A stretch of DNA of 64,000 nucleotides from a virus (Duplodnaviria; Caudoviricetes). The position numbers and the translations under genes were made by a program. The stretch lies in IMG/VR virus record IMGVR_UViG_3300010149_000008. The stretch is one strand, 5' to 3'. Of this stretch, positions 28,957 through 58,138 are shown piece after piece. Numbering within the stretch: the stretch's first letter is position 1; each line of letters begins with the position of its first letter. Below the pieces are notes generated by a model, which ran no database searches, was not told where the DNA came from, and saw only the letters and a list, made by a program, of their open reading frames with translations.

Positions 28957-28965
28957 ATATTTATA
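28957..28965 (+). promoter_or_regulatory. Putative late-promoter motif (ATATTTATA)
   Basis: 39 nt upstream of ATG 28996; overlaps a T4-type TATAAATA at 28962-28969. Confidence 0.45.
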
Positions 28966-33439: not shown

Positions 33440-35455
33440 ATGAGTTTTACACTTAAAACATTAACAGAAGGTATTAGAGACCGCCACGTAGGCCAGCAAA
33501 ATAAGCGCCTCGTTGAGAAATGGTCTCGCACTGGGCTCCTTAGAGGCATGGACGACGTAAACCGTGAGAACATGGCAACAATGCTTGAGAACCAGGCAGC
33601 ACAAGTTCTTCGCGAGAGCAACACAATGAGCAGCGGTGAGGTTGGTGGTTTCACTAACATCGCATTCCCAATCGTTCGTCGTGTTTTCGGTGGTCTTATT
33701 GCTAACGAGCTAGTTTCAATCCAACCAATGAGTTTACCATCAGGTCTTCTCTTCTACCTTGATTATACATACGGTGGTGATAGCGGTGGATATGGAAAAG
33801 GTGAGTCAATCTACGGTGGCCCAGCAGGCAAGGCAATCCAAAGTGGTGCTCTTGCTTCTGGCGGTCAATATGATCTAGTAGGTAGCGGCTTTTCTAGAAA
33901 ACCAAAAAGACTTTTAGTTTGTGACGGTGGTAATGAAGCACGTGCTGCTAATGCTGTGTTGGCTGATGATCGTGATGAGGTTGTTGCAAATATTAATGAT
34001 TTAGCAACTTTATTAGTTGACCAAAACCCAGCTTTTGTTGGTGCTCCTGCTGACGGTTCAAATGCTTTTGCAGCGTTTGGTACAAATAGTCAAGTAATTA
34101 AAATTGATCAAGCTGAGCATTTAAAGCTAATCCAGTTTGACTCACAGCTAGTTGATAGAATTACTGCTGTAGCTGATGGTGGTTTAGGCGAAAGATACGC
34201 ATTTATGGCACTTCTTTTAAGTGGTATGAGTAGCGTAGATAAGGCAATGGCAAAAGATATCGTTCTTCTTGGAGCATTTGACGACGGTGACGGTACAGAA
34301 GCACTCTCAGCAGTTCTTCCAGATGCAGTTCAAGCAGGACCTGCGCACAACGTGAGAAGACTCAATCAATTAGGAACTTTTGCAGGTGGAGTATTTACAC
34401 CTGATTCAATTGGCGGGACACACGTACTTATGGTTGTTCACTTAGGTGATAAAGATAGTACTGCGCATATATCAGGACAAATTGCTGGAAATAATGCGGC
34501 TGATAACTCTGTTGACGCGCTTACTCTTACTTTCGTGAGAGAGGACACAGTTGATCACCTTGATTCTGCAGGTGCAGCAACATTTGGTTCTGTAACTGGC
34601 GCTCCTGCATTTGAAGGTGACGGATCAGGTGGCACAGCAGATGCTTCTGATGGCACTGCGAATCTTGATATTCCAGAGATTGATATCAAGATTGAGTCAA
34701 TTCCTGTAACTGCTCAAACACGTAAGTTAAGAGCTCGTTGGAGCCCAGAGCTTGCGCAAGACCTCAACGCGTACCACTCAATGGACGCAGAGGTTGAGCT
34801 TACTCAGATCCTTTCAGAGCAAATTGCACTTGAGATTGACCGTGAGATCCTTGGTGATCTTCTTACTGGTGCTCAAGGCGCTAACTTCTTCTGGAGCCGT
34901 TCTCCAGGTAAGTTTGTTAACAAGCGTACTGGTAGTGAGATTGCTCGTACTTCAACTCTTAACCCTGGACCAGCTTTCACTGGTACAGTTCGTGAGTGGT
35001 ATGAGACTTTGACCGAGACAGTTATTGACGTAGCTAATGAGATTCACCGTAAGACTCTACGTGGTTCTGCTAACTTCATCGTGGTTTCACCTGACGTTGC
35101 AACAATCCTTGAGGCTTCAGTTCTTTATCGTCCTTCATATAGCATTGATGGTGACGGCCAAGTTGGTGCTCCTTTCACAATGGGTGCTGAGAAGGTTGGT
35201 ACACTTTCAAATCGTTTCACAGTTTATAAAGATCCTTACTTCCCACGCAACAAGATCCTTGTTGGTTATAAGGGTGGTTCTTATCTCGAGACTGGTTTCG
35301 TTTATGCTCCATATGTACCACTCATCGTTACACCGACTATCTTCCAGCCTGACGATTTCACCCCGAGAAAGGGTGTTATGACTCGTTACGGTAAGAAGAT
35401 GGTACGTGCGGACTTCTATGGTACAGTAACATGCCTCGATATGAACATTATCTAA
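33440..35455 (+). CDS. gp23: Major capsid protein (T4 gp23-like) with large central insertion
   Basis: PIVRRVF, VSIQPMSLPSGLLFYLD, TRKLRARWSPELAQDLNAYH, LEIDREI, YAPYVPL, GVMTRYG; strong codon bias. Confidence 0.95.
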   Translation: MSFTLKTLTEGIRDRHVGQQNKRLVEKWSRTGLLRGMDDVNRENMATMLENQAAQVLRESNTMSSGEVGGFTNIAFPIVRRVFGGLIANELVSIQPMSLPSGLLFYLDYTYGGDSGGYGKGESIYGGPAGKAIQSGALASGGQYDLVGSGFSRKPKRLLVCDGGNEARAANAVLADDRDEVVANINDLATLLVDQNPAFVGAPADGSNAFAAFGTNSQVIKIDQAEHLKLIQFDSQLVDRITAVADGGLGERYAFMALLLSGMSSVDKAMAKDIVLLGAFDDGDGTEALSAVLPDAVQAGPAHNVRRLNQLGTFAGGVFTPDSIGGTHVLMVVHLGDKDSTAHISGQIAGNNAADNSVDALTLTFVREDTVDHLDSAGAATFGSVTGAPAFEGDGSGGTADASDGTANLDIPEIDIKIESIPVTAQTRKLRARWSPELAQDLNAYHSMDAEVELTQILSEQIALEIDREILGDLLTGAQGANFFWSRSPGKFVNKRTGSEIARTSTLNPGPAFTGTVREWYETLTETVIDVANEIHRKTLRGSANFIVVSPDVATILEASVLYRPSYSIDGDGQVGAPFTMGAEKVGTLSNRFTVYKDPYFPRNKILVGYKGGSYLETGFVYAPYVPLIVTPTIFQPDDFTPRKGVMTRYGKKMVRADFYGTVTCLDMNII

Positions 35456-41282: not shown

Positions 41283-41699
41283 TTACTCTTCTGAACTTTC
41301 TTCACCAGCTTGAGGCTCAACATTATCATCACAATCTTCTGGACATTCTTCTCCTTCACAAGGCTCACAAGCAGGATCTACAGCCGGCTGGGGCTCGTCA
41401 CATCCGTCTTCACCCTGAAACTCAGGCTCACAATCTAATTGGTCTTCACCACCAGATACATCTTGATCACTATTTGTTTCGCCTGCTTCTGAGCCTGCTT
41501 CTGCACCTGCTTCTGCACCTGCTTCTGCACCTGCTTCTGCACCTGCTTCTGCACCTGCTTCTGCACCTGCTTCTGCACCTGCTTCTGACATTCCCATGTC
41601 TGTTTCTTGTGCTTCTTTTTCATCATGATCGTCTTTTTCACAACCACTTACCAATAAAGATAAAGCTAACATTAAAAATAACAATGAGTTCTTGAACAT
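41283..41699 (-). CDS. Acidic lipoprotein with (A/S)EAG repeats
   Basis: Signal peptide ending in lipobox LVSG-C; AGGAG RBS; Cys/Glu-rich C-terminus. Confidence 0.7.
   Translation of the reverse strand: MFKNSLLFLMLALSLLVSGCEKDDHDEKEAQETDMGMSEAGAEAGAEAGAEAGAEAGAEAGAEAGAEAGSEAGETNSDQDVSGGEDQLDCEPEFQGEDGCDEPQPAVDPACEPCEGEECPEDCDDNVEPQAGEESSEE
41482..41589 (-). repeat. 12-nt tandem repeat x9 encoding (A/S)EAG
   Basis: Plus-strand unit CCTGCTTCTGCA, 7 identical copies plus 2 variant flanks. Confidence 0.95.
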
Positions 41700-43572: not shown

Positions 43573-43884
43573 ATGCAATTATCACCTGAACAAGTACAAT
43601 CTATCAATATTCTACTTTCTGCAGTACAAGTAGCGCAGAGACGAGGTGCTTATTCACTGCAAGATGCATCAACATTGCAAGAAGCTATTGATAAGCTTGT
43701 ACCTCGAGAGGAGCAAGAGAGACAAGCAGCAGAGGCGGCCGCTGCCGACGCAAGCCCTGAGGAGGCTGAGGCATCATTAAGCATGGGAGAAACAGATGAC
43801 TGTTGCGATGACGATGATGCTGACTGTTGCGATGACGATGATGCTGACTGTTGCGATGACCAGCCGGCTGCAGATTCTGAGTAA
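43573..43884 (+). CDS. Small acidic protein with Cys-Cys/Asp repeats
   Basis: N-terminal helical domain (VQVAQRRGAYSLQDA), C-terminal DCCDDDDA repeats. Confidence 0.7.
   Translation: MQLSPEQVQSINILLSAVQVAQRRGAYSLQDASTLQEAIDKLVPREEQERQAAEAAAADASPEEAEASLSMGETDDCCDDDDADCCDDDDADCCDDQPAADSE
43798..43860 (+). repeat. 24-nt tandem repeat x2.6 (GACTGTTGCGATGACGATGATGCT)
   Basis: Exact copies at 43798 and 43822, partial copy at 43846. Confidence 0.95.
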
Positions 43885-43941
43885 TATATTCTTAGCTTTG
43901 ATAGTTAATTAAATTAATAGTTAATTAAAAAGCGAGAATAT

Positions 43942-44730
43942 ATGCCATTAATAAAAAATTACATTGCAAATTATCTGTTAAGAGAAAACATACAAAAAAA
44001 CCAACAAGTATCAATGATGTTTATAAACAGTCTGCTTGTTAAAGATGAAGACGGTTATCTCTTAGAAGAAGCTTACATAGAAGAAGAACGAGAACTCAAT
44101 CAACTTATAGATACTGGAGTGTGTGAAGATACTTTTTTTCAAAAAGTGTATGAAAGCATATTAAGTTCTGGATTTAAATACTTTGCAAAAGGATCTGGAA
44201 GAATTGTATTTACGCACAATCAGGCACCAAACTTGATTTTTAAGTTAGTTATTCCTGGTGAAGAGCTAGATGGAAATATTGCTGAAACTAGAAAAGAAAA
44301 AGAAATGATGCTTAGACATCCTCATCTTTTTGGAGAGCTATATAATGTTAAAGGGAATATTCCTAGTTTGTTTAATAATTCTATAGACTATTTTATTATA
44401 GTCGAAAGATTAATACCCTTGTTTACAACAAACTTTGTGCCATTTTCTGATGATAAAGTTTTTAATAATTTAAAATCCCAGTTTGGATATAGTGGATCTT
44501 TGTCTGAATTTAAAACATTTCTTAAAGAAAAGCTTATAAAGTATTATGAGTTAGCGTTTGGACAGGAGACTGAAGACTATGCACATATAAAAGTGCCTGC
44601 TAGTCCTCCTGACATGCTTGATAATTTTTGTGAAGAAGTAATTAAATTTAGCAAAGAAGTTAAGCCAGATAACGTTGGTTTAAAGGTTATTGGAAGTAAT
44701 AGATATAAATTTGTAATGTTAGATGTGTAA
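43942..44730 (+). CDS. Protein kinase-like fold protein (atypical or pseudokinase)
   Basis: KGSGRIVF, LIFKL, IIVERL, KEVKPDNVG, VMLDV-stop. Confidence 0.55.
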   Translation: MPLIKNYIANYLLRENIQKNQQVSMMFINSLLVKDEDGYLLEEAYIEEERELNQLIDTGVCEDTFFQKVYESILSSGFKYFAKGSGRIVFTHNQAPNLIFKLVIPGEELDGNIAETRKEKEMMLRHPHLFGELYNVKGNIPSLFNNSIDYFIIVERLIPLFTTNFVPFSDDKVFNNLKSQFGYSGSLSEFKTFLKEKLIKYYELAFGQETEDYAHIKVPASPPDMLDNFCEEVIKFSKEVKPDNVGLKVIGSNRYKFVMLDV

Positions 44731-44760
44731 AAACAGCAATTAAATAATATATAGAGATAG

Positions 44761-44841
44761 GCCCGATGCGAACATAACAGCTGACCCCGCCAGTGCATCG
44801 GAATCATGCGGACAAGTTTATCCTAAAAGGAGGAAGTTATG
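44761..44841 (+). ncRNA. Candidate structured cis-regulatory RNA leader
   Basis: GC-rich island; 8-bp stem 44763-44770/44794-44801, inner CUG/CAG hairpin, loop CCGC complementary to GCGG 44808-44811. Confidence 0.5.
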
Positions 44842-45342
44842 CCAGTAGTAGAATATACAGCCGAAAAAGGCTTAGTACAAAAATCAGGAACAACAGCAAG
44901 CCTTGACTTACAGGGACAATTATTTGGTCATCGTTCAGGAATTAAATCAGTAAGCGGAGCTACATCATTAACTGTAGCAGATTCTGGAAAGACCATATTA
45001 GTTACAGCTTCTCAAGCTGGAGCAGCATATGATATAGCATTACCAAGACTAAACGGAACAGGCGATGAAGGTACATGTTATAAGTTTATCTTAGTACAAG
45101 CAGGAAATGCAGCTGCATCGGATGTAACAATATCAGTAGGGCACGCTGACGATGACTTTGTTGGTCATATTGTTGCAACAGACGGCGTTGATACAGCAGC
45201 TGCTGGCGATGAAGATATTACATTTGACCAAAATGCCGGATCTTTAGCTGGTGATACAGTTGAATTATTTTCAGATGGAACAAAATGGTTTGTAAGAGGT
45301 CAGTCAGCTGCAGTAGCTGGTTTAGCATTTGTCGGCGCATAA
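44839..45342 (+). CDS. Putative head decoration/fibre protein
   Basis: Ala/Gly/Thr-rich beta protein: EYTAEKGL...ADSGKTILV...AGDTVELFSDGTKWFVRG; strong AGGAGG RBS. Confidence 0.55.
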   Translation: MPVVEYTAEKGLVQKSGTTASLDLQGQLFGHRSGIKSVSGATSLTVADSGKTILVTASQAGAAYDIALPRLNGTGDEGTCYKFILVQAGNAAASDVTISVGHADDDFVGHIVATDGVDTAAAGDEDITFDQNAGSLAGDTVELFSDGTKWFVRGQSAAVAGLAFVGA

Positions 45343-45364
45343 TAAATAATAAAGGAGATATATA

Positions 45365-46294
45365 ATGCCAAGTTTAGAATATACCTTGTCAAAAGGTTTA
45401 ATTAGTAAAAAGTCTGGCGGCTCTGAAATTAATTTGCAAGGCGTCATTACTAATACAAGAAAAAAAGTTACAGCGCTTGGAGATGCAGCAGCTTTACAAA
45501 GTCCCGCTAAAGCGGACAGTGGAAGAGAATATCTAATTCCAGCACAAAGTCAAGGAAGTACTATTACATTACCAAACTTTGCTGGAAGAAAAACTTCTGG
45601 AAAAATTCACTTAAATGGAGCTAATGCTGGTATACTAACAGTAGGAGATAAATTTTCATTTAATAATGTCTTTGGTAGAACATTTGTATTGACAGCTGTT
45701 GCTGATGCTGGTGGCGCTGCAAATGGAGTTTTGCAAGCAGACGGTTCTTTTGGACTAGAAATAGGAGCAGCACCAAATGCAACACAAGCTATAGATCATT
45801 TAAACAACACATTAACCGGCGTAGGAGCAAATAATGTACTTACAGCTATGTCTGATGTGACTTTTACACAGACAGATGCAGGTGCCAGTTTGACAATAGA
45901 AGCTAACTCTGTAGGAGTTTCCAACAACGGCACAATAACTATGCCTACTTTTACAAATACACCAACAATTACAGGATTTGCCGACGGAGTTGATACAAGA
46001 GATTCTGACGCTTCTGGAGTTGAGCTTCGTTACATGATGAGTGCTACTGCAGCAAATACTATTGATATTATTTTGCCTGTTGACAATACGAATACAAAAG
46101 GTACTTTTGATGCAACATTTGTAGGTGGTACAGTTGCAACTGATGGTCATACACCTTTTGCTGCAACAGACACAAAAGTTACATTTGCTGCAGCTGCTGT
46201 TGCAGGTGACTATATGATACTTAGATACGATGGCACTAGCGTTTGGGCAGTCACAGGCGCTTCTGCAGCTGACGCTGGAATTACTAGCGCTTAA
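45365..46294 (+). CDS. Paralogue of 44839 with inserted domain
   Basis: EYTLSKGL...ADSGREYLI...AGDYMILRYDGTSVWAVTG; insert of about 135 aa. Confidence 0.55.
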   Translation: MPSLEYTLSKGLISKKSGGSEINLQGVITNTRKKVTALGDAAALQSPAKADSGREYLIPAQSQGSTITLPNFAGRKTSGKIHLNGANAGILTVGDKFSFNNVFGRTFVLTAVADAGGAANGVLQADGSFGLEIGAAPNATQAIDHLNNTLTGVGANNVLTAMSDVTFTQTDAGASLTIEANSVGVSNNGTITMPTFTNTPTITGFADGVDTRDSDASGVELRYMMSATAANTIDIILPVDNTNTKGTFDATFVGGTVATDGHTPFAATDTKVTFAAAAVAGDYMILRYDGTSVWAVTGASAADAGITSA

Positions 46295-46313
46295 AAACTA
46301 GAAAGGTTTAATA

Positions 46314-46625
46314 ATGAGTAAAAGAGAAGTTAAAGAATCAAAGAAGGTTGCTGAGCCAAAGAAAGTTGCTGAGCCAAAGAAAGTTGCTGAGTCAAAGAAG
46401 GTTGCTGAGCCAAAGAAAGTTGCTGAGCCAAAGAAAGTTGCTGAGCCAGTACCTGCTAAACTAAAACTAAATATTGATGATAAAGTTAAATTAGTTAAAG
46501 ATGGTCGACAAGGTGTTGTTACATATGTAAGAAATGATGAAGAAGGCTTTTTGATAAAAGCTGAAGTCTTACTAGAAGACGGTACTAAAAAAGTTTCTGG
46601 GTCATTATCTTTAGAACTTTTATAA
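46314..46625 (+). CDS. KKVAEP-repeat protein with C-terminal SH3/KOW-like domain
   Basis: Six KKVAE(P/S) units, then IDDKVKLVKDGRQGVV...AEVLLEDG. Confidence 0.65.
   Translation: MSKREVKESKKVAEPKKVAEPKKVAESKKVAEPKKVAEPKKVAEPVPAKLKLNIDDKVKLVKDGRQGVVTYVRNDEEGFLIKAEVLLEDGTKKVSGSLSLELL
46341..46448 (+). repeat. 18-nt tandem repeat x6 with 54-nt higher-order period
   Basis: AAGAA(G/A)GTTGCTGAG(C/T)CA; units 1 and 4 carry the G variant. Confidence 0.95.
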
Positions 46626-46653
46626 AAAAACAATAATTAGCAATTATAGGCTT

Positions 46654-46697
46654 AAGCCTCTGTAGAATTCTTTACAATGTTTTTGCAGAGGTTTTTT
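46654..46697 (+). terminator. Rho-independent terminator
   Basis: AAGCCTCTGTAGAA / TTTTGCAGAGGTTT 14-bp stem (3 G-U) followed by T-run. Confidence 0.7.
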
Positions 46698-46779
46698 AGT
46701 ATTTGCTGTTTGATAATTTAGTTCTTTTATAAAGACTTTTATAATTAGATATGTATATAAAAGATTATAGGAGTTTTGT

Positions 46780-48279
46780 ATGGCTTCGTTTGCTAGTTTA
46801 GTATCATTAAATGATAAACCAACAGCGTTTGGAACATTTGATGACGACTTACATTTTCAAGAAGACGCTGATAAGATTATATTATATGTCAAACGACGCT
46901 TAGGCGATGATATAATGTCAGTAGAATTGACTAATCGTCAAATATGGACGAATTTTGAAGAAGCTTGTCTAGAATTTTCAAAGAATGTAAATGCTCACCA
47001 AGCTGAGTCTTACATGTCAAATCTTCTAGGTCTTAAGATAGGACCAACTGAAACGTTTAAAAAGAATTCCCATGGGCATTATTACTGGAATGACGTAGAT
47101 ATTGAAGGATCACCGCTTTTAATTCAAGATACTTTTGACCCTAGATTTCAAAGCTCAAACTTTAAAGGTAAATACGTTCAAGAAGGCAACGCTGATGTTA
47201 TTCCTAGACAAATTGAGGCTGAGCTAGACAACGATTCTAATAAAATATCAGCTAGTCCTATACTAGACAAAAGAATAGGACCTCACGGAAAAGAACAAAA
47301 ATTTCCTCGCGAGACATTAGAATATTTAGTAAGACGTGCAGAACCATATGCAGCTGAAGCTGTTGTAGGTGGTTCTACAGACTTTGTAAGAGCATTTATA
47401 CCTCTGACTTCTAAAGATCAAGATTACGATATTTACAAAGACATGGTTATACCTGGGAAAGATGCTAGTGGCGCAGGTGTCCAGCTTAAGCTAGAAGAGT
47501 GGAATGGACAAGATGATCATTTGAGTGCTTTTAATCCTTTGTACTCTTCATCGCTGCCTGCTAATATAACAAGCACAAAAATTAAAATACAAGAAGTATA
47601 TCATTTTTCGCCACAAGCAGCGTATCGCTTTTTTGATACGACTTCAGCAGTAAACTATTTAAATAATCAATTTGCTTTTGAATCTTTTACACCGGAAACT
47701 GTATTTTACGTATTACCAGTGTTTGAAGATCTACTTCGTGCAGGGCAGCTTGACATATCAAATAGAGTTAGGCGCAGCAATTTTAGTTATAAGATACAAG
47801 GTAAAAATATTAGAATATTTCCTAGACCAACACAGGAAAATCCTATGAACTTGTTTGTTAAGTTTAGTTTTCCAGCTGATCCTTATAAAACAAATTTACC
47901 TTATGAAGATGAAACAATTGATGGTGTATCAAATATTTCTAACGTTCCTTTTGCAAATGTAAAGTATAGCTCTATAAATTCTATGTGTAGACAGTGGATT
48001 AAACAGTACACTTTGGCTTTGTGTAAAGAGACTTTAGGAATGATAAGATCTAAGTTTTCTTCTGTACCAATTCCAGGCAGTGACCTTCAAATGAATGGGT
48101 CAGAGCTTATAAGTCAAGGGAGAGAAGACAAATCAAATCTTAACTCTTCTTTAACAGAAACTCTAGACAAACTAACATATCAAAAGTTATTAGAAGCAGA
48201 TGCAGCTCAGTCTGAACAAATGAGTCAAATACTTAAAAGAATTCCCATTCCTAATGGGAGAGCAATTATTATAGGATAA
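46780..48279 (+). CDS. gp13: Neck/head-completion protein (T4 gp13-like)
   Basis: KRRLG...VELT, WIKQYTLALCKETLGMIRSKF..VPIPG...MNGSEL. Confidence 0.8.
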   Translation: MASFASLVSLNDKPTAFGTFDDDLHFQEDADKIILYVKRRLGDDIMSVELTNRQIWTNFEEACLEFSKNVNAHQAESYMSNLLGLKIGPTETFKKNSHGHYYWNDVDIEGSPLLIQDTFDPRFQSSNFKGKYVQEGNADVIPRQIEAELDNDSNKISASPILDKRIGPHGKEQKFPRETLEYLVRRAEPYAAEAVVGGSTDFVRAFIPLTSKDQDYDIYKDMVIPGKDASGAGVQLKLEEWNGQDDHLSAFNPLYSSSLPANITSTKIKIQEVYHFSPQAAYRFFDTTSAVNYLNNQFAFESFTPETVFYVLPVFEDLLRAGQLDISNRVRRSNFSYKIQGKNIRIFPRPTQENPMNLFVKFSFPADPYKTNLPYEDETIDGVSNISNVPFANVKYSSINSMCRQWIKQYTLALCKETLGMIRSKFSSVPIPGSDLQMNGSELISQGREDKSNLNSSLTETLDKLTYQKLLEADAAQSEQMSQILKRIPIPNGRAIIIG

Positions 48280-48283
48280 TATC

Positions 48284-48943
48284 ATGGCTAGATTATTTGT
48301 AGGACAAAGAGAAGCTGACTTTTTTGCTGATTTAACTAAAGAAGTGATAAAAGACATTGCTGGCCAAAAAGTATATTACTATACAATTAGAGAAGACTTA
48401 TCAAATGTACATGAGCTATATGAAGAGTCTCCTCAGAAAATATTTAATCCTCCTGTCGAAATTGAATGTATGGTTGAATGGCAACCTTCAGAAGTTCGTA
48501 CTACAAACTTTGGTACTGAAACTATAAAAACACTTACGTTGTATCTTCACTATAGAGACTTGCTTGATAGAGAAATAGTTTTTAATGAAGGGGACTACTT
48601 TTCTTACGGCCCATACTTTTTTGAAGCAACTTCAATTATATACGACAAGATTGCATATGGTCAAATTGAAAGAATTATTTCTATAAAAGTTAATGGTAAA
48701 CAAACAAGAATGCATCAAGTTGCGCTCAGACCTCATGGGCCTATTGATGAAGCATATTCTGATCAAGATGCAATTCAAACAACATTTACACAGCAAAGAG
48801 GTATACCTGATCATGACGTAAGAAGATTACAAGATGATGGAATAATCGATAAACCAATTTCAGGCCCAAGGTCTGTAAAACCTGATGGTTCTGCAAGAAG
48901 TGTTAATGGCGTAGGATCTTCTTTCTATGGAGATGAAGACTAA
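48284..48943 (+). CDS. gp14: Neck/head-closure protein (T4 gp14-like)
   Basis: GQKVYYY...NVHELYEES, EGDYFSYG; syntenic after gp13. Confidence 0.65.
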   Translation: MARLFVGQREADFFADLTKEVIKDIAGQKVYYYTIREDLSNVHELYEESPQKIFNPPVEIECMVEWQPSEVRTTNFGTETIKTLTLYLHYRDLLDREIVFNEGDYFSYGPYFFEATSIIYDKIAYGQIERIISIKVNGKQTRMHQVALRPHGPIDEAYSDQDAIQTTFTQQRGIPDHDVRRLQDDGIIDKPISGPRSVKPDGSARSVNGVGSSFYGDED

Positions 48944-50163
48944 TGGCAACAAAATATGATTTAGACAGTAATAAAAGATATGCACCTACAGGATATGAAG
49001 GATCTGGTAATACAGATTACATTATACCCTCGTGCGGTGTTGAAGACCTAGATCATTCTATTTTTAATCTTTTTGACAAACAGATACCTTTATATTATGA
49101 TCTTCATGGCGAAATAAAAAAAGTTCCTGTAATATTTGCTACAGGCGAACGATTTGCTTTGTTAAGAAGAAAACAACCGATAACTGACAGAAATGGTGCA
49201 TTAATATTGCCACTTATTTCTATAACAAGGACAGCAATAGAAAACGTACCTTCAAAAGGAATTGCTAATAATCAAATGTTTCCTAATATTGTGACAAAAA
49301 GAATATCAAAAAAAGATTTAGAATATAGACAACAAAAAAACATAGAAAATTTAAAAAACGTAAAAGGTGAAGATCTATCACAAGAAGGAGATATTTCTCT
49401 TAAGCCGAGAATAGAAAAAAATATTGTTGAAACAATCGAGATGCCTCCAGTTAAATATTTTGGCGCTAATTACGAGATTTCAATCTGGTCATCTTTTACT
49501 CAGCAAATGAACAAATTATTGGAAGCGATTATGAGTGCTTACACACTTAATCCTGGACAGCAGTTTAGATTAGAAAGTGACAAAGGCTACACATTTTCAG
49601 CATTTGTTGATGGGAGTATATCACAAGATACAAACTATAGCGACTTTACTGATGCAGAAAGATATATCAAATATAATATGACAATTAATGCAACAGGCTA
49701 TATTATTGCGCCAAATATTTTAGGAGGTAAAACTGCGTTAAGATCGTTTATGAGTGCACCTGAAGTATCTTTTGATGTATTAGAAGAATTTGTACAATTA
49801 GATCCTCAAGTAGGAGGTGTTGCTGATCCTGATCCTAATGCACATATGTTTGATGACTTAGCAACAGAGGATACATTAGTTGCTTCTACTAGAGTAGGTA
49901 TAGTCGGCGGTAGTAATGCAAAAGAGCTACAAGAAATAGACAGGTCAAAAGGATTTGCAGTTGATCTAAATATAGATAAATATAAGTCAGATGTTGTAGG
50001 CGAAAAATCTTCTGATAGTAAAAAGGTAAGAAAAACATTTGTTAGAGACTTGAACGGAAAACTTGTTCCTGTTATGGCTAAAGCTTCAAAAGGCAAAGGC
50101 GAAACTGTATACGATGCTAGATTAGGTGAAGTTTTATTTAATATTTCATCAATTGACGAATAA
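48943..50163 (+). CDS. gp15: Tail terminator/sheath stabiliser (T4 gp15-like)
   Basis: KVPVIFATGERF...LPLISITRT, YEISIWS; synteny before sheath. Confidence 0.65.
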   Translation: MATKYDLDSNKRYAPTGYEGSGNTDYIIPSCGVEDLDHSIFNLFDKQIPLYYDLHGEIKKVPVIFATGERFALLRRKQPITDRNGALILPLISITRTAIENVPSKGIANNQMFPNIVTKRISKKDLEYRQQKNIENLKNVKGEDLSQEGDISLKPRIEKNIVETIEMPPVKYFGANYEISIWSSFTQQMNKLLEAIMSAYTLNPGQQFRLESDKGYTFSAFVDGSISQDTNYSDFTDAERYIKYNMTINATGYIIAPNILGGKTALRSFMSAPEVSFDVLEEFVQLDPQVGGVADPDPNAHMFDDLATEDTLVASTRVGIVGGSNAKELQEIDRSKGFAVDLNIDKYKSDVVGEKSSDSKKVRKTFVRDLNGKLVPVMAKASKGKGETVYDARLGEVLFNISSIDE

Positions 50164-50222: not shown

Positions 50223-53200
50223 ATGGCAGAACAGACATTTAAGTCTCCAGGATTTTTCGAGCGAGAGATCGAAGTCATTAGTAGACCTCTTACACGAAAT
50301 ACAGCTACACCGGTTGGTGTAATTGGTCCTGCCCAAAAAGGACAAGCATTCGTACCTAAAACAGTAACAAGTGTTGATGAATTTATTAGAGAATTCGGTA
50401 TGCCAGATCAAGACACGTCTGCTGCCCATGCTGTCAGTGAATTCTTTACAAACGGCGGAAAAGCAGCAACATTCTGCCGCATCTTAGGCTCAGGAAAATC
50501 TGCAGCTGCAGGCACAAATAATTACGCAGGCTTTAAGATTGATGGAACAGCTCTTACAGCAGGAGGCGAAACAGATAGAGCACGTGGCGCAGTACAATTT
50601 ATTGTTGCAGAGCATGAAATTAACTTGGCAGAACACGTTACTTATGGTATTTTTAACGATAACGACTCACATAAGACATCAATGGATCCAGACCCATCAG
50701 ACAATGGCGGTGCTTTACAAGATGTCAATAGCTCTGATAGAGAAGTTCAATTAGTTCGTGCTATGATTTTTATGCATAAAGATTATACTCTTAGGATTAG
50801 TGAAGCCTCAGATACAACTGTTGGCCAATCGAGTGGTACTAATGATACTGCAACTCCAGCTTCCGGATTATTTAAGCTATGGATAATGAAGCATGATGAT
50901 GATACAGATGCTGATCCTTATACAGTATCATTAGACCCTTCTTCTACGCAATACATTGCAAAAGTTTTAAACACAGATCCTTATAGCTTTACAAAAGAAA
51001 AACACTTTTTATATGCAGACTTTCCTGTAGATAGCGAAATTGCTGAAGTTAAAGATGTAGCTGATCGTGTTGGTGTTGTAAGAGGTAATAGTGAAAATAT
51101 AGATTTGTATGGTGACTTTGTATCTAGGTTTACTGCACCTCAAACAACGTCTTTTATCTCCCAACCTTTTGGCAAGAAAGAATACGATCTTTTCCACTTT
51201 GAATCACTTGATGATGGTGCATATGCAAGTGGAAGTTATAAAATTTCTATTGCAAACATTAAGGCATCAACTCAAAAGAATTATAAGTATGGAACATTTT
51301 CTGTCCAACTTCGAAAAATTGATGATACAGATGAAGCACCAGTTATTCTCGAGTCATATAGCAGATGCTCTTTAGATCCTGACGCAAAAAATTATATTGC
51401 AAGATTAATTGGTGATCAAAAAGTAATGCTTTCTTTAGACGTTGATTCTGAAGATGAAAAGAGACTTGTAAGAGAAGGAACATTCCAAAGCAAGTCGTCT
51501 AGAATTCGTGTTGTTATGTCAAAAGACGTTATGAGAGGCGAAGCTCCAGATGACGCGCTTCCTTTTGGGTTTAGAGGCATACCCGCTTTAAAAACTACAA
51601 GTGACGGAAAAGATGCCAACGCAACAACAGTTAATAGTTTGCTTCTAGGCAAAGTAGTTGATTCATCATCAGTTTTAAATGCGTTAGGTAGTTCAATTTT
51701 GCCTCCTTTACCTTTTAGATCCAAGGTTACAAAAGGTAGCATGCTTAATAATGCAGGCGCATATTTTCAAGAATACTTTGGGCAAGCTCTTAACAAAGAA
51801 ACTGGTTTAAAGACTTCACAAGAAAACGTAAAGACATCTCTTTATTGGGGGCTTCATACTTCTAGAGTTTCAAATATTGATCGACCAAATGACAGTCTTT
51901 CTACAGACTTTAATCCTTTAATTAGATCTTTGACAAAATTTCTTGCAAAAAGAGACGAAGTTAAGTTTAGTGGAACAGCTGCAGATAAGTTTAACAATAA
52001 CAAATTTAGTCTTGCAAAAGTAGCATTCCCAGGAAGTACAGTAGCATCAATTCAAGGTAGTCCTCTTGATGCATTCTTGGAAGCTGTTTATGTAAGAAAC
52101 GCTGATGTTGACAGTGCATTTTATGATGCAGTTAATCATACAATTGATATGGATGCTGATTCTAGTGCTAACGATCCTTTCATAGGAGAATTAAGTACTG
52201 TAGCTTCAAATGCTTTAATTGTAGGTACAACTTATGAAATATTAACAACTCCTGACAACACAGCTGCAGGTATATCAAATAATGTTGTAGGCGAAATATT
52301 TACAGCAACCTTAACTTCTACAGGCGATGCTAATGGAACAATGAGACCATTTAGAAATACAAGAGCTACAATGGCTAAGTTGCTAGCTGAAGATATTACA
52401 AAGTTTAATAAATACAGCCAGATGGCTAAGTTTACTGCTCCTTTTTATGGTGGTTTTGACGGCGTTAACATTTTAAATAGAGACGATGCTTTCTTTACAG
52501 ATAGAGCAACATCAGTTGATTTAGGTGGACATGCAGGCGACGGTGGTTATACAAGTGGTCTAGACGGTACTGATGATGCTGATCCTATGCAAGGTAAAGA
52601 ATTAAATAACAATGCTGTTATATCATATAGAAATGCTATATTAGTTATGACTGATGAGATGATTATTGATCATAATGTCTTGGTTGTTCCGGGAATTCGT
52701 GAATCACTCATTTCAGATTATGCAGCACGTCGTGTAAGAGATTATGGCAAAGCAATTTATTTAATGGATATTCCTCATTACACTAAAGATAACGAAAGAA
52801 TATTTGTTTCATCTCGTGGTATTGCAACAGGAACAGCAGATGTTGATTTGACATCTTCTATCTTCGACCAGCGTGAGCTTGATTCATCATATGTTGCAAC
52901 GTATTTTCCTGATGTAATGATTAAAGACAGTGGTGATGATGAAAATGCTAGACAGACAAATCATAGAGCTAAGCGTGTACCATCATCAGCTGTTGCTTTA
53001 GGTGCACTTGCAAGAACAGACGCAAACCAAAGTCCTTGGTTTGCTCCTGCAGGATTTTCTCGTGGTGCTCTACCTAATGTTACAAGTCTTGATGTAAGAT
53101 TAAACGCAGCAGATCGTGATACTCTTTACGAGGCACGAATCAATCCAATTGCGAACTTCCCAAATAATCAGTTTGTTATATTTGGTCAGAAGACAACGCA

Positions 53201-53534
53201 AATTGCAAGAACAGCACTTGATAGAGTTAACGTTAGACGATTAATGATTAATATCAAGAGAAGAATTCAGAAAGTTGCACAAGGTTTGCTATTTGAGCAA
53301 AATGATGCAGCAACAAGAAACCGTTTTATTTCAAGAACATCTTCGATTTTGGCAGACGTTAGAGTTCGTCAAGGTATTGAAGATTTCCGCGTAATCATGG
53401 ACGACACAAATAACTCTGCTGAGGATGTGGATAACAATAGATTGAATGGTCGTATTGTTGTTGTACCAACTCGAGCTGTTGAGTTTATTGCAATGGACTT
53501 TGTAATTACAAATAGCGGTGTAGAATTCCCTTAA
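50223..53534 (+). CDS. gp18: Tail sheath protein 1 (gp18-like)
   Basis: FKSPGFFEREI, GPAQKGQAFVP, PWFAPAGFSRG, INPI, FGQKT, ALDRVNVRRL, PTRAVEFI. Confidence 0.93.
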   Translation: MAEQTFKSPGFFEREIEVISRPLTRNTATPVGVIGPAQKGQAFVPKTVTSVDEFIREFGMPDQDTSAAHAVSEFFTNGGKAATFCRILGSGKSAAAGTNNYAGFKIDGTALTAGGETDRARGAVQFIVAEHEINLAEHVTYGIFNDNDSHKTSMDPDPSDNGGALQDVNSSDREVQLVRAMIFMHKDYTLRISEASDTTVGQSSGTNDTATPASGLFKLWIMKHDDDTDADPYTVSLDPSSTQYIAKVLNTDPYSFTKEKHFLYADFPVDSEIAEVKDVADRVGVVRGNSENIDLYGDFVSRFTAPQTTSFISQPFGKKEYDLFHFESLDDGAYASGSYKISIANIKASTQKNYKYGTFSVQLRKIDDTDEAPVILESYSRCSLDPDAKNYIARLIGDQKVMLSLDVDSEDEKRLVREGTFQSKSSRIRVVMSKDVMRGEAPDDALPFGFRGIPALKTTSDGKDANATTVNSLLLGKVVDSSSVLNALGSSILPPLPFRSKVTKGSMLNNAGAYFQEYFGQALNKETGLKTSQENVKTSLYWGLHTSRVSNIDRPNDSLSTDFNPLIRSLTKFLAKRDEVKFSGTAADKFNNNKFSLAKVAFPGSTVASIQGSPLDAFLEAVYVRNADVDSAFYDAVNHTIDMDADSSANDPFIGELSTVASNALIVGTTYEILTTPDNTAAGISNNVVGEIFTATLTSTGDANGTMRPFRNTRATMAKLLAEDITKFNKYSQMAKFTAPFYGGFDGVNILNRDDAFFTDRATSVDLGGHAGDGGYTSGLDGTDDADPMQGKELNNNAVISYRNAILVMTDEMIIDHNVLVVPGIRESLISDYAARRVRDYGKAIYLMDIPHYTKDNERIFVSSRGIATGTADVDLTSSIFDQRELDSSYVATYFPDVMIKDSGDDENARQTNHRAKRVPSSAVALGALARTDANQSPWFAPAGFSRGALPNVTSLDVRLNAADRDTLYEARINPIANFPNNQFVIFGQKTTQIARTALDRVNVRRLMINIKRRIQKVAQGLLFEQNDAATRNRFISRTSSILADVRVRQGIEDFRVIMDDTNNSAEDVDNNRLNGRIVVVPTRAVEFIAMDFVITNSGVEFP

Positions 53535-53578: not shown

Positions 53579-56500
53579 ATGGCTGGACAAGGCTCAGCGA
53601 GAGTAACTCTACGTGAAATCGATTTATCACAAGTAAGAAATCCTCAACAACTACCACAGGGTGTCCCAGCTGCTGTTGTTGGTCCTGCGAGAAAAGGTCC
53701 AGCCTTTGTCCCGCAAACATTTGCAACAATGCAGCAGTTTAATGAGGTCTTTGGAAATATGCTTGAAGTGGGACGAGAAGGCAACTCAAACCAATTTGGA
53801 CCTTTAGCTCTTAACGAGTGGATGCGTTCTGCGCAAGCAGGAACGTATCTTCGCGTTTTAGGCGTTGGTAATGGTTTGCCATCAAGCAGCGGCAAAACAT
53901 CTGAAGCAGGTTTTGTTGTAGGTGAAAAACAGCTTCAATTGCAATCAACAGGTCTTGCAAAAGTTGGTGACAACGAAAATGCAGCTATTACAGACTCAAC
54001 TGCAGCTTTAGCTTTAGGCAGAACTCATATGCTTGGCTGCTTTATGAAAGATGCAGAAGGTAGCACATATCTTGCAGATGCAGGAATGGCTTCAGAAGAT
54101 GCTGCAGCTTCTATTGTTATAGACTTTGGTGATCAAGTGCCTGAAGATGGCAGTACTCTTTCTTTAATCGCAGACGATGGTGACGGCACATTTACAACTA
54201 GAGTTTATGGTTTTGATAATGGCGGCGGCGCTGTTGCAAACACTAATCATGTTATTAACACAGTGGGTGGTGCAAATGCAATTGCTGCACTTCTAGCTAC
54301 AGAAATTCAACAAAATCATGCAAATTTAAATGCTGTAGCTGCAGCAAATACTGGGCGACTAACGATTACACAAGTCCAGTCAGGCGCAGCAGGTAATACA
54401 GAAGTTAAAGCAACACTTAATAATGCTGTTACAAATAAAATTACAATTACTTCTGCAGACGGCACAAGCATTACAAATAGTACATCTGGCGCAACGTTTA
54501 GATTTAGAGAAGGAACAGGCGGAACCAAAGCTTCAGGTAAAATTTCAGGACAAGATGCAGCAATTACAGATGGACAAAACATTGTAATTAAAAGTCCAGA
54601 CGTTACAGGTACAGAAAAAACTGTAACATTTACTTTTAATACACAGGCAACAATTGATACTGCAATTGATAATGATGGAGCTGTTGCTGTAGGACAAGAC
54701 AAAGCTGATGCTAAAGCAGCTGCAGCAACTGCAGGATTTTATAGAGTTGCTGCAGCAACTGGTGCGATTACTGTGTTAAATGTTACTGGAGGCTCAAATG
54801 CAGAAAATAATGCAGCATCTTTACAAAATCTGTTAAATGCTATTAACTCTTCTGGACATGATATCTCTGGTCTTATTACAGGAGAACGATCAGACGACGA
54901 CCTTGTTTTAACTCAGGTACTTCAAGGAACTGAAGGTAATCTAGCTTTAACTACAACAGCTGCTGCTGCCTTTACTATTGGTGGTTTAGAAGATGGTAGC
55001 GGTAACGCTAATGTCATAGAAGGCGGCACAGCAGCTGCTAACGCTAATGTAACGTTAAAGTTTAACGGTCAACCAAACGCAGGTGACGTTATAAGACTTC
55101 CTAATCTAAATGGCTCAACAGATGGAGAAGCTTTTCACTTTATAGCAACGCTAACAGGAGATCTCATTGGTGGTCTAAATGCTACAAGACCAGGTGGTCT
55201 AGATGATACAATTGGCGGAAATACTGCTATAGCTGTTGAGTTAGGTGAGTCAATTGATGTAACACTAGATAATTTAAGACATGCATTACTACAAAACGGT
55301 GGCGCAGACCCTGATAATAATGCAGGTCATGGATTAGATAAAGATAATATATCAGTTGTTATTGATTTCTCAAGCAAAGAATTAAAAATTGCTGCTGATG
55401 GTGCAAACGGTTTGGCAGACAACAAAGAATTAATCTTTAACGTGTCTTCAAACGTAACAGTTTCTAATCCTGCAGGTGAGAGTTTAGTTGGTAACTTTGG
55501 TGAAAAGACAATCAACTTTTCAGGTGGCGAGACAAATGCTGCACAACCAGTTATTCGTGGCGTTTTAATGACTCCACAAGGTGTAAGAGCTTCTTTAGAG
55601 GTCAATGATAATTTAGGAGACGATGATGCAGATATTTTAGTTCCATTAAAAGACTTATCATCTCATGATAAAGTTAGGCTTCGTGCACATGGAAAAACAT
55701 TTGGTAATACAGCTGATAATAATCTTGCAGGATACGTTGTAGGTGAAGTTGATAGCAGTCAAGGATTTAAATTAATTTTAAATGGCTATTCTAATATAGA
55801 GAACCCTGCAGTTTTGGACTGTTCATTCGATCCTAATTCACCATCATATTTTGCAAAAGTATTAAACACAGATCCAACAAAGATGGAAGAGTTAGGACAT
55901 TATTTATACGCTAACTGGGATATTAATCCAGCCGTTGCTGCTCCTTCAAATGCAGGCTTAAAGCATAGTGGTGCGAGTGTTATTGGTACAAACTATGAAG
56001 ACATGAAGGGTTTCTTGGTTGCAGGTGCAGCAGGAAGAAACACATCAGATACAGGTAAACCTGACTATGAAGACTTTAGAAGCAAATTTGCAACTGCAAG
56101 AACGCCATGGATTGTTTCGCAATTTTATAGTGCAGGTGTAAATACTGCTGCTAGACCTGGGACGGCAGCCTCGGGCGGCGCAGTTAAGCTATTTAGACTT
56201 TACTCAGTAGATGACGGTGTAATTTCTAATGGCAAATTTAGATTGTTAATTTCAAACTTAAGATACGGTGGACAAAATGATTATGGATCATTTGATATGT
56301 CACTTGAAAGTTTTGCGTCAGATCCTATTAGAGGAACTGTTGTAGCTTCATGGAAAAATGCAAACTTAGATACTAATAGCAGAAACTTTATCGGTCGACT
56401 TGTTGGTGATAAACACATTTATTATGATTTTGAGAGTGACTTAGGAAAACAAAGACTACGTGAAGAAGGTCAATATGACAGAAAAAATCCTTACGTAAGA

Positions 56501-58138
56501 ATTGAACTTTCAGATGCACTTAAGCAAGGTGACGTCGAAATCGATGCTTTACCAACAGGTTTCCAAGGTCATGCACACTTATTTACTAAGAGTAATGGCA
56601 ACTTCTTAGAACTTGATGTAGCTGAAGGTAATAGAGTTTTTACAGACTCTGCTAATCTAGTTACAGAAACTTTATCACAAGCGCAGGTTTTACCTCTTGA
56701 CTTTGTAACAAGCATTAATAGAATTGAAGGTGCTTCTTCTTTAGCTTCTGATGATGATTTAGCTTGGGGCGTTAAATTTGCTTTAAGAGAAAACAATCAT
56801 ATAAGTTATACTGATTCGAATGGCAATTTAGTTAAAGGTCACAAAGAGTTAACAGAGCAAGTATTTAACAAATCAATTAGTTCATGGGCTAAGTTCTTTC
56901 CTTCGTTTGGATCGAATCCTGCTTGGATTACAGATGATGCTGCAGACTCAAGTCAAAATTCTTTCTTCTCATTAGAAAAAATTGCAATACCAACAGCTTC
57001 TTTAGACACTGATAGCAATATATCTACTTGGGATGGAGCTACTTATAAGAGAAAACCAGCAGACACGCCAAGTGGTAGATTTGTTAAAATTTCTAAAGAC
57101 GCGTTAGGCGGAAATGCTAAATATCTTAAGTTCCGATGTATGTTCCAAGGTGGATTTGATGGTGTTAATATATTTGATGAAGAAAAAGCTGAATTATCAG
57201 GCGTGGCATCTTTAAGAGAAGGTGAAGACGAGACAAATTCTCAAAAGTTTACTGGTCCTACAGTTATGGCATATCAAAGAGCAGTTGATGTTTTAACTGA
57301 TAAGTCTGCAACTGAGTTCCAATTGCTAGCTATTCCTGGCCAAAGATCACCACGAGTTACTGACTATGCAATTACAGCTTGTGAAGATAGATTTGATGCA
57401 ATGCTTATTATTGATATTGTTGAGAAAGATGCTTTAAACAGCTTAATTGAAGACAGTGATGTTAAGCCACATGTTAGAAATACTATTTCGTTATTTTCTG
57501 ATCGTGTTTTAGATACATCATTTGCTGCAGCTTATTTTCCAGATGTAGTTGTACGTCGTCCTTCTGACAATGCACCAATTGTTGTCCCACCATCTGTTGG
57601 AATGCTTGGTGTAATGAGTAGAAACGACTCGATTGCAGATCCATGGTTTGCTCCTGCAGGCTTAAATAGAGGTCGTCTAAGTGCTATTGATTCTAGAGTT
57701 CAAATGAACAGAGACTTGTTAGATGATCTTTATGATGCTGACATTAATCCAATTTACGTTCCAGCTGGACGTAGTGGTGAGGTTTACGCATTTGGTCAAA
57801 AGACACTTCTCCAAGATCAGTCAGCGCTCGATAGAATTAATGTACGTCGTCTTCTTATTGACATTAGACGCAAGGTTAAGAAAGTTGGCGAGCAGTTATT
57901 ATTTGAGCCAAATAGATCATCTACATTATCTAGATTTTCTTCATTGGTTGAACCAATCATGGCAAACGTTCAGGAACGAAGAGGTGTTACTCGTTATAAG
58001 GTTCAAATTGACTCTTCAACGACGACACAAAACGACATTGAGAACAATACAATTCGTGGCAAGATCTACTTGCAACCTACTAAGTCTGTAGAGTTTATTT
58101 CTTTAGACTTTGTGGTCACAAATACAATTCAGCAATAA
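53579..58138 (+). CDS. gp18: Tail sheath protein 2 (gp18-like) with three inserted repeat domains
   Basis: GPARKGPAFVP, PWFAPAGLNRG, FGQKTL, ALDRINVRRL, QPTKSVEFISLDF. Confidence 0.93.
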   Translation: MAGQGSARVTLREIDLSQVRNPQQLPQGVPAAVVGPARKGPAFVPQTFATMQQFNEVFGNMLEVGREGNSNQFGPLALNEWMRSAQAGTYLRVLGVGNGLPSSSGKTSEAGFVVGEKQLQLQSTGLAKVGDNENAAITDSTAALALGRTHMLGCFMKDAEGSTYLADAGMASEDAAASIVIDFGDQVPEDGSTLSLIADDGDGTFTTRVYGFDNGGGAVANTNHVINTVGGANAIAALLATEIQQNHANLNAVAAANTGRLTITQVQSGAAGNTEVKATLNNAVTNKITITSADGTSITNSTSGATFRFREGTGGTKASGKISGQDAAITDGQNIVIKSPDVTGTEKTVTFTFNTQATIDTAIDNDGAVAVGQDKADAKAAAATAGFYRVAAATGAITVLNVTGGSNAENNAASLQNLLNAINSSGHDISGLITGERSDDDLVLTQVLQGTEGNLALTTTAAAAFTIGGLEDGSGNANVIEGGTAAANANVTLKFNGQPNAGDVIRLPNLNGSTDGEAFHFIATLTGDLIGGLNATRPGGLDDTIGGNTAIAVELGESIDVTLDNLRHALLQNGGADPDNNAGHGLDKDNISVVIDFSSKELKIAADGANGLADNKELIFNVSSNVTVSNPAGESLVGNFGEKTINFSGGETNAAQPVIRGVLMTPQGVRASLEVNDNLGDDDADILVPLKDLSSHDKVRLRAHGKTFGNTADNNLAGYVVGEVDSSQGFKLILNGYSNIENPAVLDCSFDPNSPSYFAKVLNTDPTKMEELGHYLYANWDINPAVAAPSNAGLKHSGASVIGTNYEDMKGFLVAGAAGRNTSDTGKPDYEDFRSKFATARTPWIVSQFYSAGVNTAARPGTAASGGAVKLFRLYSVDDGVISNGKFRLLISNLRYGGQNDYGSFDMSLESFASDPIRGTVVASWKNANLDTNSRNFIGRLVGDKHIYYDFESDLGKQRLREEGQYDRKNPYVRIELSDALKQGDVEIDALPTGFQGHAHLFTKSNGNFLELDVAEGNRVFTDSANLVTETLSQAQVLPLDFVTSINRIEGASSLASDDDLAWGVKFALRENNHISYTDSNGNLVKGHKELTEQVFNKSISSWAKFFPSFGSNPAWITDDAADSSQNSFFSLEKIAIPTASLDTDSNISTWDGATYKRKPADTPSGRFVKISKDALGGNAKYLKFRCMFQGGFDGVNIFDEEKAELSGVASLREGEDETNSQKFTGPTVMAYQRAVDVLTDKSATEFQLLAIPGQRSPRVTDYAITACEDRFDAMLIIDIVEKDALNSLIEDSDVKPHVRNTISLFSDRVLDTSFAAAYFPDVVVRRPSDNAPIVVPPSVGMLGVMSRNDSIADPWFAPAGLNRGRLSAIDSRVQMNRDLLDDLYDADINPIYVPAGRSGEVYAFGQKTLLQDQSALDRINVRRLLIDIRRKVKKVGEQLLFEPNRSSTLSRFSSLVEPIMANVQERRGVTRYKVQIDSSTTTQNDIENNTIRGKIYLQPTKSVEFISLDFVVTNTIQQ

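Follow-up and report, generated by a model that had tools for sequence, protein, structure and literature searches.

A covarying double-pseudoknot RNA leader that may gate translation of a virion gene module in uncultured marine T4-like phages

Phage messages can be controlled through RNA structure: the leader of T4 gene 32 has a 5′ pseudoknot, and the coat-protein operator of MS2 is a hairpin that holds the replicase AUG, both of which serve as handles for translational repression. T4-type phages also carry PeSL cassettes, in which early promoters with simple stem-loops are present in many copies. A more elaborate fold is found in HDV-like ribozymes (HDV, hepatitis delta virus), whose helix P1 measures ~7 bp, helix P3 ~3 bp and loop L3 ~7 nt, with a G at position +1 and a G·U wobble at the base of P1. 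Phages carry HDV-like ribozymes, the theta ribozymes among them, and in these RNAs a catalytic C is required at the first position of J4/2, where its replacement abolishes activity (PMC10879173). Here we describe an 83-nt leader (44759-44841) in a 64,000-nt stretch of viral DNA, hereafter called the window, which comes from IMG/VR record IMGVR_UViG_3300010149_000008, a 133-kb fragment of an uncultured virus. The leader lies between a conserved TAATATATA box and an ATG at 44839. We propose, at a probability of roughly 0.55, that it serves a late phage mRNA as its 5′ untranslated leader, folded into a compact nested double pseudoknot that would gate translation initiation at the first gene of the neck-proximal virion module.

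Contigs encoding homologues of the 167-amino-acid protein directly downstream gave the first evidence of relatives, as they show the same leader with a helix P1 that is different in sequence yet complementary. Leader copies were gathered by pattern scans of viral and metagenome contigs, through loci identified by the conserved 219-amino-acid neck protein, and with two covariance models (R1 and R2). The resulting ~60 leaders, all distinct and all from marine samples, represent seven or more sequence lineages, among them the main type, the L271/L277 type, L283, L285, L376, L377 and L378. A preliminary description of the locus, drawn from the sequence of the window, had suggested a comparison with the leaders of related genes; across 53 distinct leaders the structure is conserved, with 98.6% of cells paired and 11 of 21 pairs changed on both sides. 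None of 500 shuffled controls reached the observed pairing or compensatory-change values, and sliding the partner strand lowered pairing to 25-35% of cells. P2 and the pseudoknot were absent from the covariance model that guided the alignment, and the 3′ strand of P2 was absent from every search pattern. A cross-lineage MAFFT alignment (A3) misaligned P1 and P2, and counts were taken instead from the model-guided alignment and by script. G·U pairs are common, with 24 at a single pair of P1, and the RNA is therefore assigned to the + strand. Between phages, the leader is 85-99% identical as against 72-81% for the DNA of the conserved neck gene, and distant lineages keep the fold at 62-67% identity. 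As judged from these alignments, the leader is under selection as a folded RNA, with compensatory changes keeping every helix of the proposed structure. Loci L379-L382, whose neck proteins are 52-55% identical and whose GC content is 42-52%, gave no leader match, and L380 and L381, the pair for which upstream ORFs were listed, also lack the downstream F0/F1 gene module described below. A covariance model now exists for annotating the leader in metagenomes.

The pairings put forward in the preliminary description largely hold. The loop-tail pseudoknot (CCGC with GCGG) and the CAUAAC-GUUAUG helix that includes the start codon (here P2) covary, as does the UCCU-AGGA hairpin at the Shine-Dalgarno sequence (P4) within the main lineage, and the motifs involved lie where they had been placed (CCGATGC at 44763-69, GCATCGG at 44795-801, CTG-ACCCCGC-CAG at 44781-93, GCGG at 44808-11, CATAAC at 44773-78, GTTATG at 44836-41, TCCT at 44821-24 and AGGA at 44828-31). 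P1 is likewise borne out by compensatory changes except for its proposed eighth pair: the helix has 7 bp in all lineages, and U44794 pairs with G44780 in P3, not with G44770. Its two strands occur in 16 combinations, nearly all paired at seven of seven positions (for example CCUCGUU/GACGAGG, CCAAUCC/GGAUUGG, UCAUAUC/GAUAUGA and CCAGCAC/GUGCUGG), with a compensatory change in five of the seven pairs. The outer pair of P3, G44780-U44794, covaries (GC 18, GU 18, AU 10, CG 5, UA 1), and the inner pairs CUG/CAG are nearly invariant, with an exception in L377 (CGG/ACG), where a U-A pair has become G-C. The pseudoknot takes the forms CCGC/GCGG, CCAC/GUGG, UCGC/GCGA, UCGC/GCGG, UCGA/UCGA and AUAC/GUAU, always with 4 bp and never with a broken pair.

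P1, P3, the pseudoknot and P2 are kept throughout the leaders, and the P4 hairpin is variable, lacking a clear hairpin in L285 and L376. Within the main lineage P4 covaries as UCCU/AGGA, UCAC/GUGA and CUC/GAG, and elsewhere it is replaced by ACCU/AGGU, AAAAC/GUUUU, CUUU/AAAG or CUAU/AUAG, in some cases with the Shine-Dalgarno sequence in the loop. Two unpaired elements are constant across all lineages: the A with which the loop begins, and AAUC(A/U)U, the junction that leads from P1 to the pseudoknot, in which C44805 is the sole unpaired C invariant in every lineage. Two other readings of these segments were considered and rejected. Pairing of AUAAC with GUUUAU (44816-21), as in a minimal HDV-like fold with C44813 as the catalytic base, is not maintained: the segment varies (GAUUAU, GUAUAU, GUAAUU, AUAUAA), and in the L271 type a U stands in place of the C. 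An upstream open reading frame (ORF) starting at the invariant AUG of AAUCAUG would run for anything from 3 to 171 codons in varying frames, and is hence not conserved.

P2 connects this fold to the start of the gene. Between the pseudoknot and the AUG lie anywhere from ~21 to ~50 nt, yet in every case the P2 3′ strand stops no more than a few bases from the AUG, and it co-varies with its 5′ partner through six sequence forms (CAUAAC/GUUAUG, UAUAAC/GUUAUA(UG), CAUGAU/AUCAUG, UAAUAA/UUAUUA(UG), UUUGAU/GUCAAA(UG) and UUGAC/GUCAA(AUG)), alongside a shifted GGCA/UGCC. Because this closing helix reaches the start codon despite every change in sequence and spacing, the element is tied to translation initiation. 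The sequence context of the leader's gene start is absent from all other gene starts in the window. In the gate that we propose, the folded core, formed by P1, P3, the pseudoknot and the AAUCAU junction, would keep the weak, AU-rich P2 shut. In this state the 30S subunit would be denied the AUG and frequently half the Shine-Dalgarno sequence as well, and opening of the fold would allow initiation. Since the unpaired bases are strictly conserved, a specific partner is suggested, which would set the balance between the open and closed states and might be a protein (perhaps one encoded in the operon), an ion or a small molecule. As a secondary effect, the terminal structure may shield the 5′ end of the mRNA. 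Since the gene that comes first behind the leader is not the same in all phages, its product as such is an unlikely autoregulator; yet members of both downstream families, F0 and F1, are always in the module.

Several points weigh against a gate. P2 and P4 are weak helices that the ribosome could open, and any throttling would perhaps be mild. The placement of the Shine-Dalgarno sequence relative to P4 varies (in the 3′ strand, in the loop, or with no hairpin at all), and masking is thus inconstant. The preliminary description had pictured a translational switch or autoregulatory operator, and of this picture the structured RNA on the start codon stands, and switching and binding of an operon protein stay conjectural. 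Neither a mutually exclusive alternative fold, as a two-state switch would require, nor a candidate ligand or binding protein came to light, and nothing found for the basic F1 protein, a constant member of the operon, points to RNA binding. In its 5′ half the leader closely matches HDV-like ribozymes, and by this analogy a catalytic role is possible. For the RegA family (PF01818), a sub-threshold match (17.7 bits against a cut-off of 25) occurs in a 335-amino-acid ORF of the complete relative G003 (L316, G003:C1:45920-49204); the window's own record has no RegA match, and no RegB was found.

The leader forms, as first described, a GC island, with 51% GC overall and 59% in its core as against 32% in the whole window and 27% in the upstream flank; only 0.3% of the 49-nt stretches of the window are as GC-rich as the core. 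It occupies a 108-nt gap between a 262-amino-acid ORF (43942-44730) and the 167-amino-acid ORF (44839-45342). Its folding energy does not differ significantly from that of shuffled sequence (z of -0.06 and -0.55), and because these single-sequence scores are at chance level, the sequence of the window alone is insufficient to prove a structure. A search of Rfam returned no match at gathering score across the whole window and none at E values up to 10 within 44650-44950, in agreement with the preliminary description, in which no known Rfam family had been recognized. Each record or genome has the leader once, among them a complete genome of 239.5 kb that has terminal repeats. The copy search covered the window, its 133-kb record and three related records and found one strong copy in each; a second match in G003 (E 0.2) was rejected as a copy, as it does not resemble the fold. 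In bacterial and archaeal genomes, 27 pattern matches were obtained, none scoring as the fold apart from a doubtful match (E 0.06) in GC-rich coding DNA. Among GenBank phages, the region 43900-46700 has no DNA match and the neck gene has only a protein match of 28% identity; the set contains no cultured relative.

Table 1 Features of the leader and of the genes that follow it, in window coordinates.
Feature	Position	Strand	Remarks
TAATATATA box, promoter-like	44745..44753	+	5 nt upstream of AGGC; putative promoter
AGGC, conserved 5′ end of leader	44759..44762	+	A[G/A]GC in every lineage (alignments A1, A4, A6); transcript start probably in this region
P1 5′ strand CCGAUGC	44763..44769	+	Pairs with 44795-44801
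J1/2 GAA	44770..44772	+	Variable, 2-4 nt
P2 5′ strand CAUAAC	44773..44778	+	Pairs with GUUAUG 44836-41
P3 5′ strand GCUG	44780..44783	+	Pairs with CAGU 44791-94
L3 loop ACCCCGC	44784..44790	+	Last four bases, CCGC (44787-90), form the pseudoknot 5′ strand
P3 3′ strand CAGU	44791..44794	+	Continues directly into P1 3′ strand
P1 3′ strand GCAUCGG	44795..44801	+	Pairs with 44763-44769
Unpaired junction AAUCAU	44802..44807	+	Invariant in six of seven lineages; AAUCUU in L376
Pseudoknot 3′ strand GCGG	44808..44811	+	Pairs with CCGC 44787-90
P4 hairpin UCCU-AAA-AGGA	44821..44831	+	Covers the 5′ half of Shine-Dalgarno GGAGG (44829-33)
P2 3′ strand GUUAUG	44836..44841	+	Contains start codon 44839-41
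First gene, 167 amino acids, MPxVExxxKGLVQ family (F0)	44839..45342	+	Homologues, family clustering
F0 paralogue, 309 amino acids	45365..46294	+	Family clustering
Basic Lys-rich protein F1, 103 amino acids	46314..46625	+	KKVAEP repeats, small C-terminal domain
Neck genes: gp13-like (499 amino acids), 219-amino-acid protein in the gp14 position, gp15-like (406 amino acids)	46780..50163	+	Follow the module

Upstream of the leader, the (G)TAATATATA box is near-invariant and sits at a fixed distance in ~70 loci, followed by five variable bases and A(G/A)GC. The usual order is a hairpin plus T-run terminator, the box and the leader; 66 of 78 loci lack the 262-amino-acid ORF and have the usual upstream gene (ending ...SDSE), the terminator and then the box directly. 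In the window this terminator is missing, as the extra ORF at 43942-44730 separates the ...SDSE gene, which ends at 43884, from the box. We considered TAATATATA as a general late promoter and rejected this role: it is not enriched in the window (6 matches, 2.6 expected), and other late genes have TATAAATA instead. These T4-type late-promoter octamers are found at 28962, 30749, 58161 and 63541, just upstream of structural genes that include the tube gene. The leader's box differs from TATAAATA and may belong to another promoter class.

The leader is found in RNA-library contigs from several marine studies, in which contigs attest presence in the libraries, not ends, strand or level; parts left uncovered are uninformative, and the libraries may hold DNA. 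One such contig, from RNA run X5 (window 44771-44822), begins with ACATGGGG joined to TGATAGGCCCGG, while genomes L239 and L240 have ...TAATATATA before GTGATAGG. The prefix (ACATGGG) resembles what we take to be the 3′ end of a template-switch oligonucleotide, a weak hint that it marks an RNA 5′ end right after the box. Many short metagenome contigs have one of their two ends in the leader, 15-93 nt upstream of the ATG (L005, L007-L010, L012, L013, L015 and L016). These breaks probably arise because near-identical leaders join different flanking genes in co-occurring strains, which splits the assembly graphs.

The virus encodes T4-type structural proteins, namely a Gp23 major capsid protein, a gp15-like protein, two sheath paralogues and a gp19-like tube protein. 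As had been noted, the leader precedes a decoration-like gene family, F0. It always heads a module composed of F1 plus one to three F0 paralogues in either order, which is followed by the gp13-like, 219-amino-acid, gp15-like, sheath and tube genes; in many relatives F1, not F0, comes first behind the leader. The neck genes are assigned through phrog_211, which matches the 499-amino-acid protein, PF26809, recorded on the product of a relative, and PF16724, which matches the 406-amino-acid protein. The module occupies the position that we take to be that of wac (fibritin) in T4. An AlphaFold model of the 167-amino-acid F0 protein (pLDDT 84) has its best fold matches in a phage capsid spike, in the N-terminal module of a tailspike and in domains of the T4 gp9/gp10 type, each at a TM-score <0.5, and a role at the virion surface is plausible from this model.

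Further observations concern the structural genes and their surroundings. The two very large sheath paralogues lie in tandem (50223-53534, 1103 amino acids, and 53579-58138, 1519 amino acids), and the sheath domains match only their C-terminal parts, so that each must contain long insertions or extensions. The Gp23-type major capsid protein (33440-35452, 671 amino acids) has a Pfam match over residues 375-661, with ~370 N-terminal residues unexplained. In-frame coding repeats include the 18-nt KKVAEP repeats of F1 (46327-46452) and 12-nt repeats at 41458-41613 in a minus-strand ORF (41283-41699); three 24-nt in-frame repeats (43797-43868) lie near the end of the ORF at 43573-43884.

Explanations other than a gate were weighed against the same evidence. 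A constitutive structural leader without a sensor, in which the knot would protect the late mRNA from 5′-end-dependent decay or from endonucleases that cut the ribosome-binding site, and would set a fixed translation rate, is possible although unlikely. Its fold does begin a few bases from the likely transcript start, 5′-terminal structures that stabilize mRNAs are established in bacteria and phages, and no ligand, protein partner or alternative fold was found; simple protection, however, needs neither the invariant unpaired AAUCAU, nor the covarying pseudoknot, nor a helix that tracks the start codon, and a general stabilizer would be expected on many late mRNAs rather than on one late operon per ~240-kb genome. 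A location just after a promoter-like box and in front of a string of genes more than 15 kb long would also suit an element acting on transcription, either as an RNA that modifies the polymerase for processive antitermination along the neck-sheath-tube operon, as does the structured cis-acting antiterminator RNA put of phage HK022, or as a pause or attenuation signal. We consider this very improbable, as no T-run or terminator follows the leader and an element that acts on the polymerase has no need of a covarying contact with the start codon. Least credible is that conservation reflects exchange at the DNA level, with terminator, promoter and leader forming a mobile cassette at a recombination boundary between variable modules. 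The flanking genes do vary, the order of F0 and F1 flips, the window has its extra ORF upstream, many metagenome contigs break inside the leader, and leaders can be 99% identical between phages whose neck proteins are ~65% identical. Yet exchange leaves the compensatory changes in four helices over seven lineages and the strand-specific G·U pairs unexplained; because of this covariation it fails as a sole explanation and may add to selection on the RNA fold, not replace it.

Self-cleavage has to be judged from the likeness to HDV-like ribozymes, with which the leader shares a nested double pseudoknot and the strand order P1, P2, P3, L3, P3′, P1′, loop-tail pseudoknot, P4, P2′. The dimensions also agree, with a P1 of 7 bp, a P3 of 3-4 bp and an L3 of 6-7 nt ending in CGC (ACCUCGC in L283), and in both RNAs P3′ is contiguous with P1′, P2 closes the 3′ end of the fold and P4 is variable or dispensable. 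The preliminary description had recognized this nested layout together with the missing G at +1 and the missing U at the first L3 position, to which a third absent hallmark can be added, the C at the first J4/2 position: this position is an invariant G in the main lineage (A1 column 84), an A in L271/L277, and G or absent elsewhere. The first pair of P1 is C-G in 50 of the 53 leaders and U-A in L377 and L378, with no G·U. The two-pair P1.1 of the ribozymes, formed between the 5′ part of L3 and the bases directly 3′ of P1, is absent from the leader, where the loop-tail helix is a 4-bp one made with the final four L3 bases and lies behind the 6-nt AAUCAU junction. The 3′ strand of P2 differs too, in being the start-codon region of a gene. 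With the J4/2 C, the G·U at the base of P1 and a P1-adjacent P1.1 all failing, the leader is not, on its sequence, filed as an HDV-like ribozyme. It could in principle represent a related class not yet described, which would cleave at the base of P1, on the 5′ side of C44763, to leave a late mRNA with a 5′-OH and would place its catalytic base outside J4/2, with C44805, next to the base of P1, as a candidate; we regard this as rather doubtful. In its favour are the strand order and dimensions, the strictly conserved unpaired junction, as found in active sites, and the occurrence of HDV-like ribozymes in phages (PMC10879173). However, the first J4/2 position, at which a C is required (PMC10879173), never holds a conserved one in the leader, the P1 base is C-G instead of G·U, the P1.1-like helix uses the 3′ half of L3 at 6 nt from P1, and no HDV-type Rfam model (HDV, CPEB3, drz and related) matches within 44650-44950 even at E 10. 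RNA-library contigs also cross the putative cleavage site, a weak objection since contigs do not measure cleavage and may be DNA. A bolder version, marginally more doubtful still, would have an HDV-fold ribozyme of a new class, its base moved from J4/2 (again with C44805 as candidate), trim the 5′ end of the late mRNA while its closing helix also masks the start codon; RNA processing would then be coupled to translation start within one 80-nt element.

Uncultured marine T4-like phages with genomes of ~240 kb are numerous and little understood, and the tuning of their virion protein synthesis is almost unexplored. In this setting the leader provides a small RNA (~80 nt) with strong covariation, a defined position, a defined target in the start codon and a fold that has otherwise been seen solely in one family of ribozymes. 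If non-catalytic, as under the translational gate, it would be a case of the HDV-type fold put to another use, that of a translational operator or sensor; if catalytic, it would add a new ribozyme class and a new role for ribozymes in the mRNA of bacterial viruses.

By its mode of action, the proposed gate would be most like the translational pseudoknot leaders (the preQ1-II and SAM-II types, T4 gene 32 and the MS2 operator), an analogy of function between RNAs unrelated in sequence and topology. The leader has the make-up expected of a riboswitch, a conserved structured core with invariant unpaired bases and a P2 helix on the start codon, and matches none of the known classes. With the preQ1-II, preQ1-III and SAM-II/SAM-V riboswitches it shares the compact pseudoknotted leader, the conserved unpaired bases and a last helix over the translation start region. 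It differs from them in topology, without a sequence or model match, and it is the AUG, not mainly the Shine-Dalgarno sequence, that its helix covers; its genes encode virion proteins instead of serving metabolism or transport, and the gene context suggests no ligand. The T4 gene 32 and MS2 operators likewise place a 5′ pseudoknot or a start-codon helix in a phage leader, but there the proteins are known and the folds simple, whereas here a double pseudoknot precedes an inconstant first gene. The PeSL cassettes resemble the leader as short conserved regulatory cassettes that border variable gene modules in T4-type genomes, from which it is set apart as a single-copy element of a late operon, built as a covarying pseudoknotted RNA.
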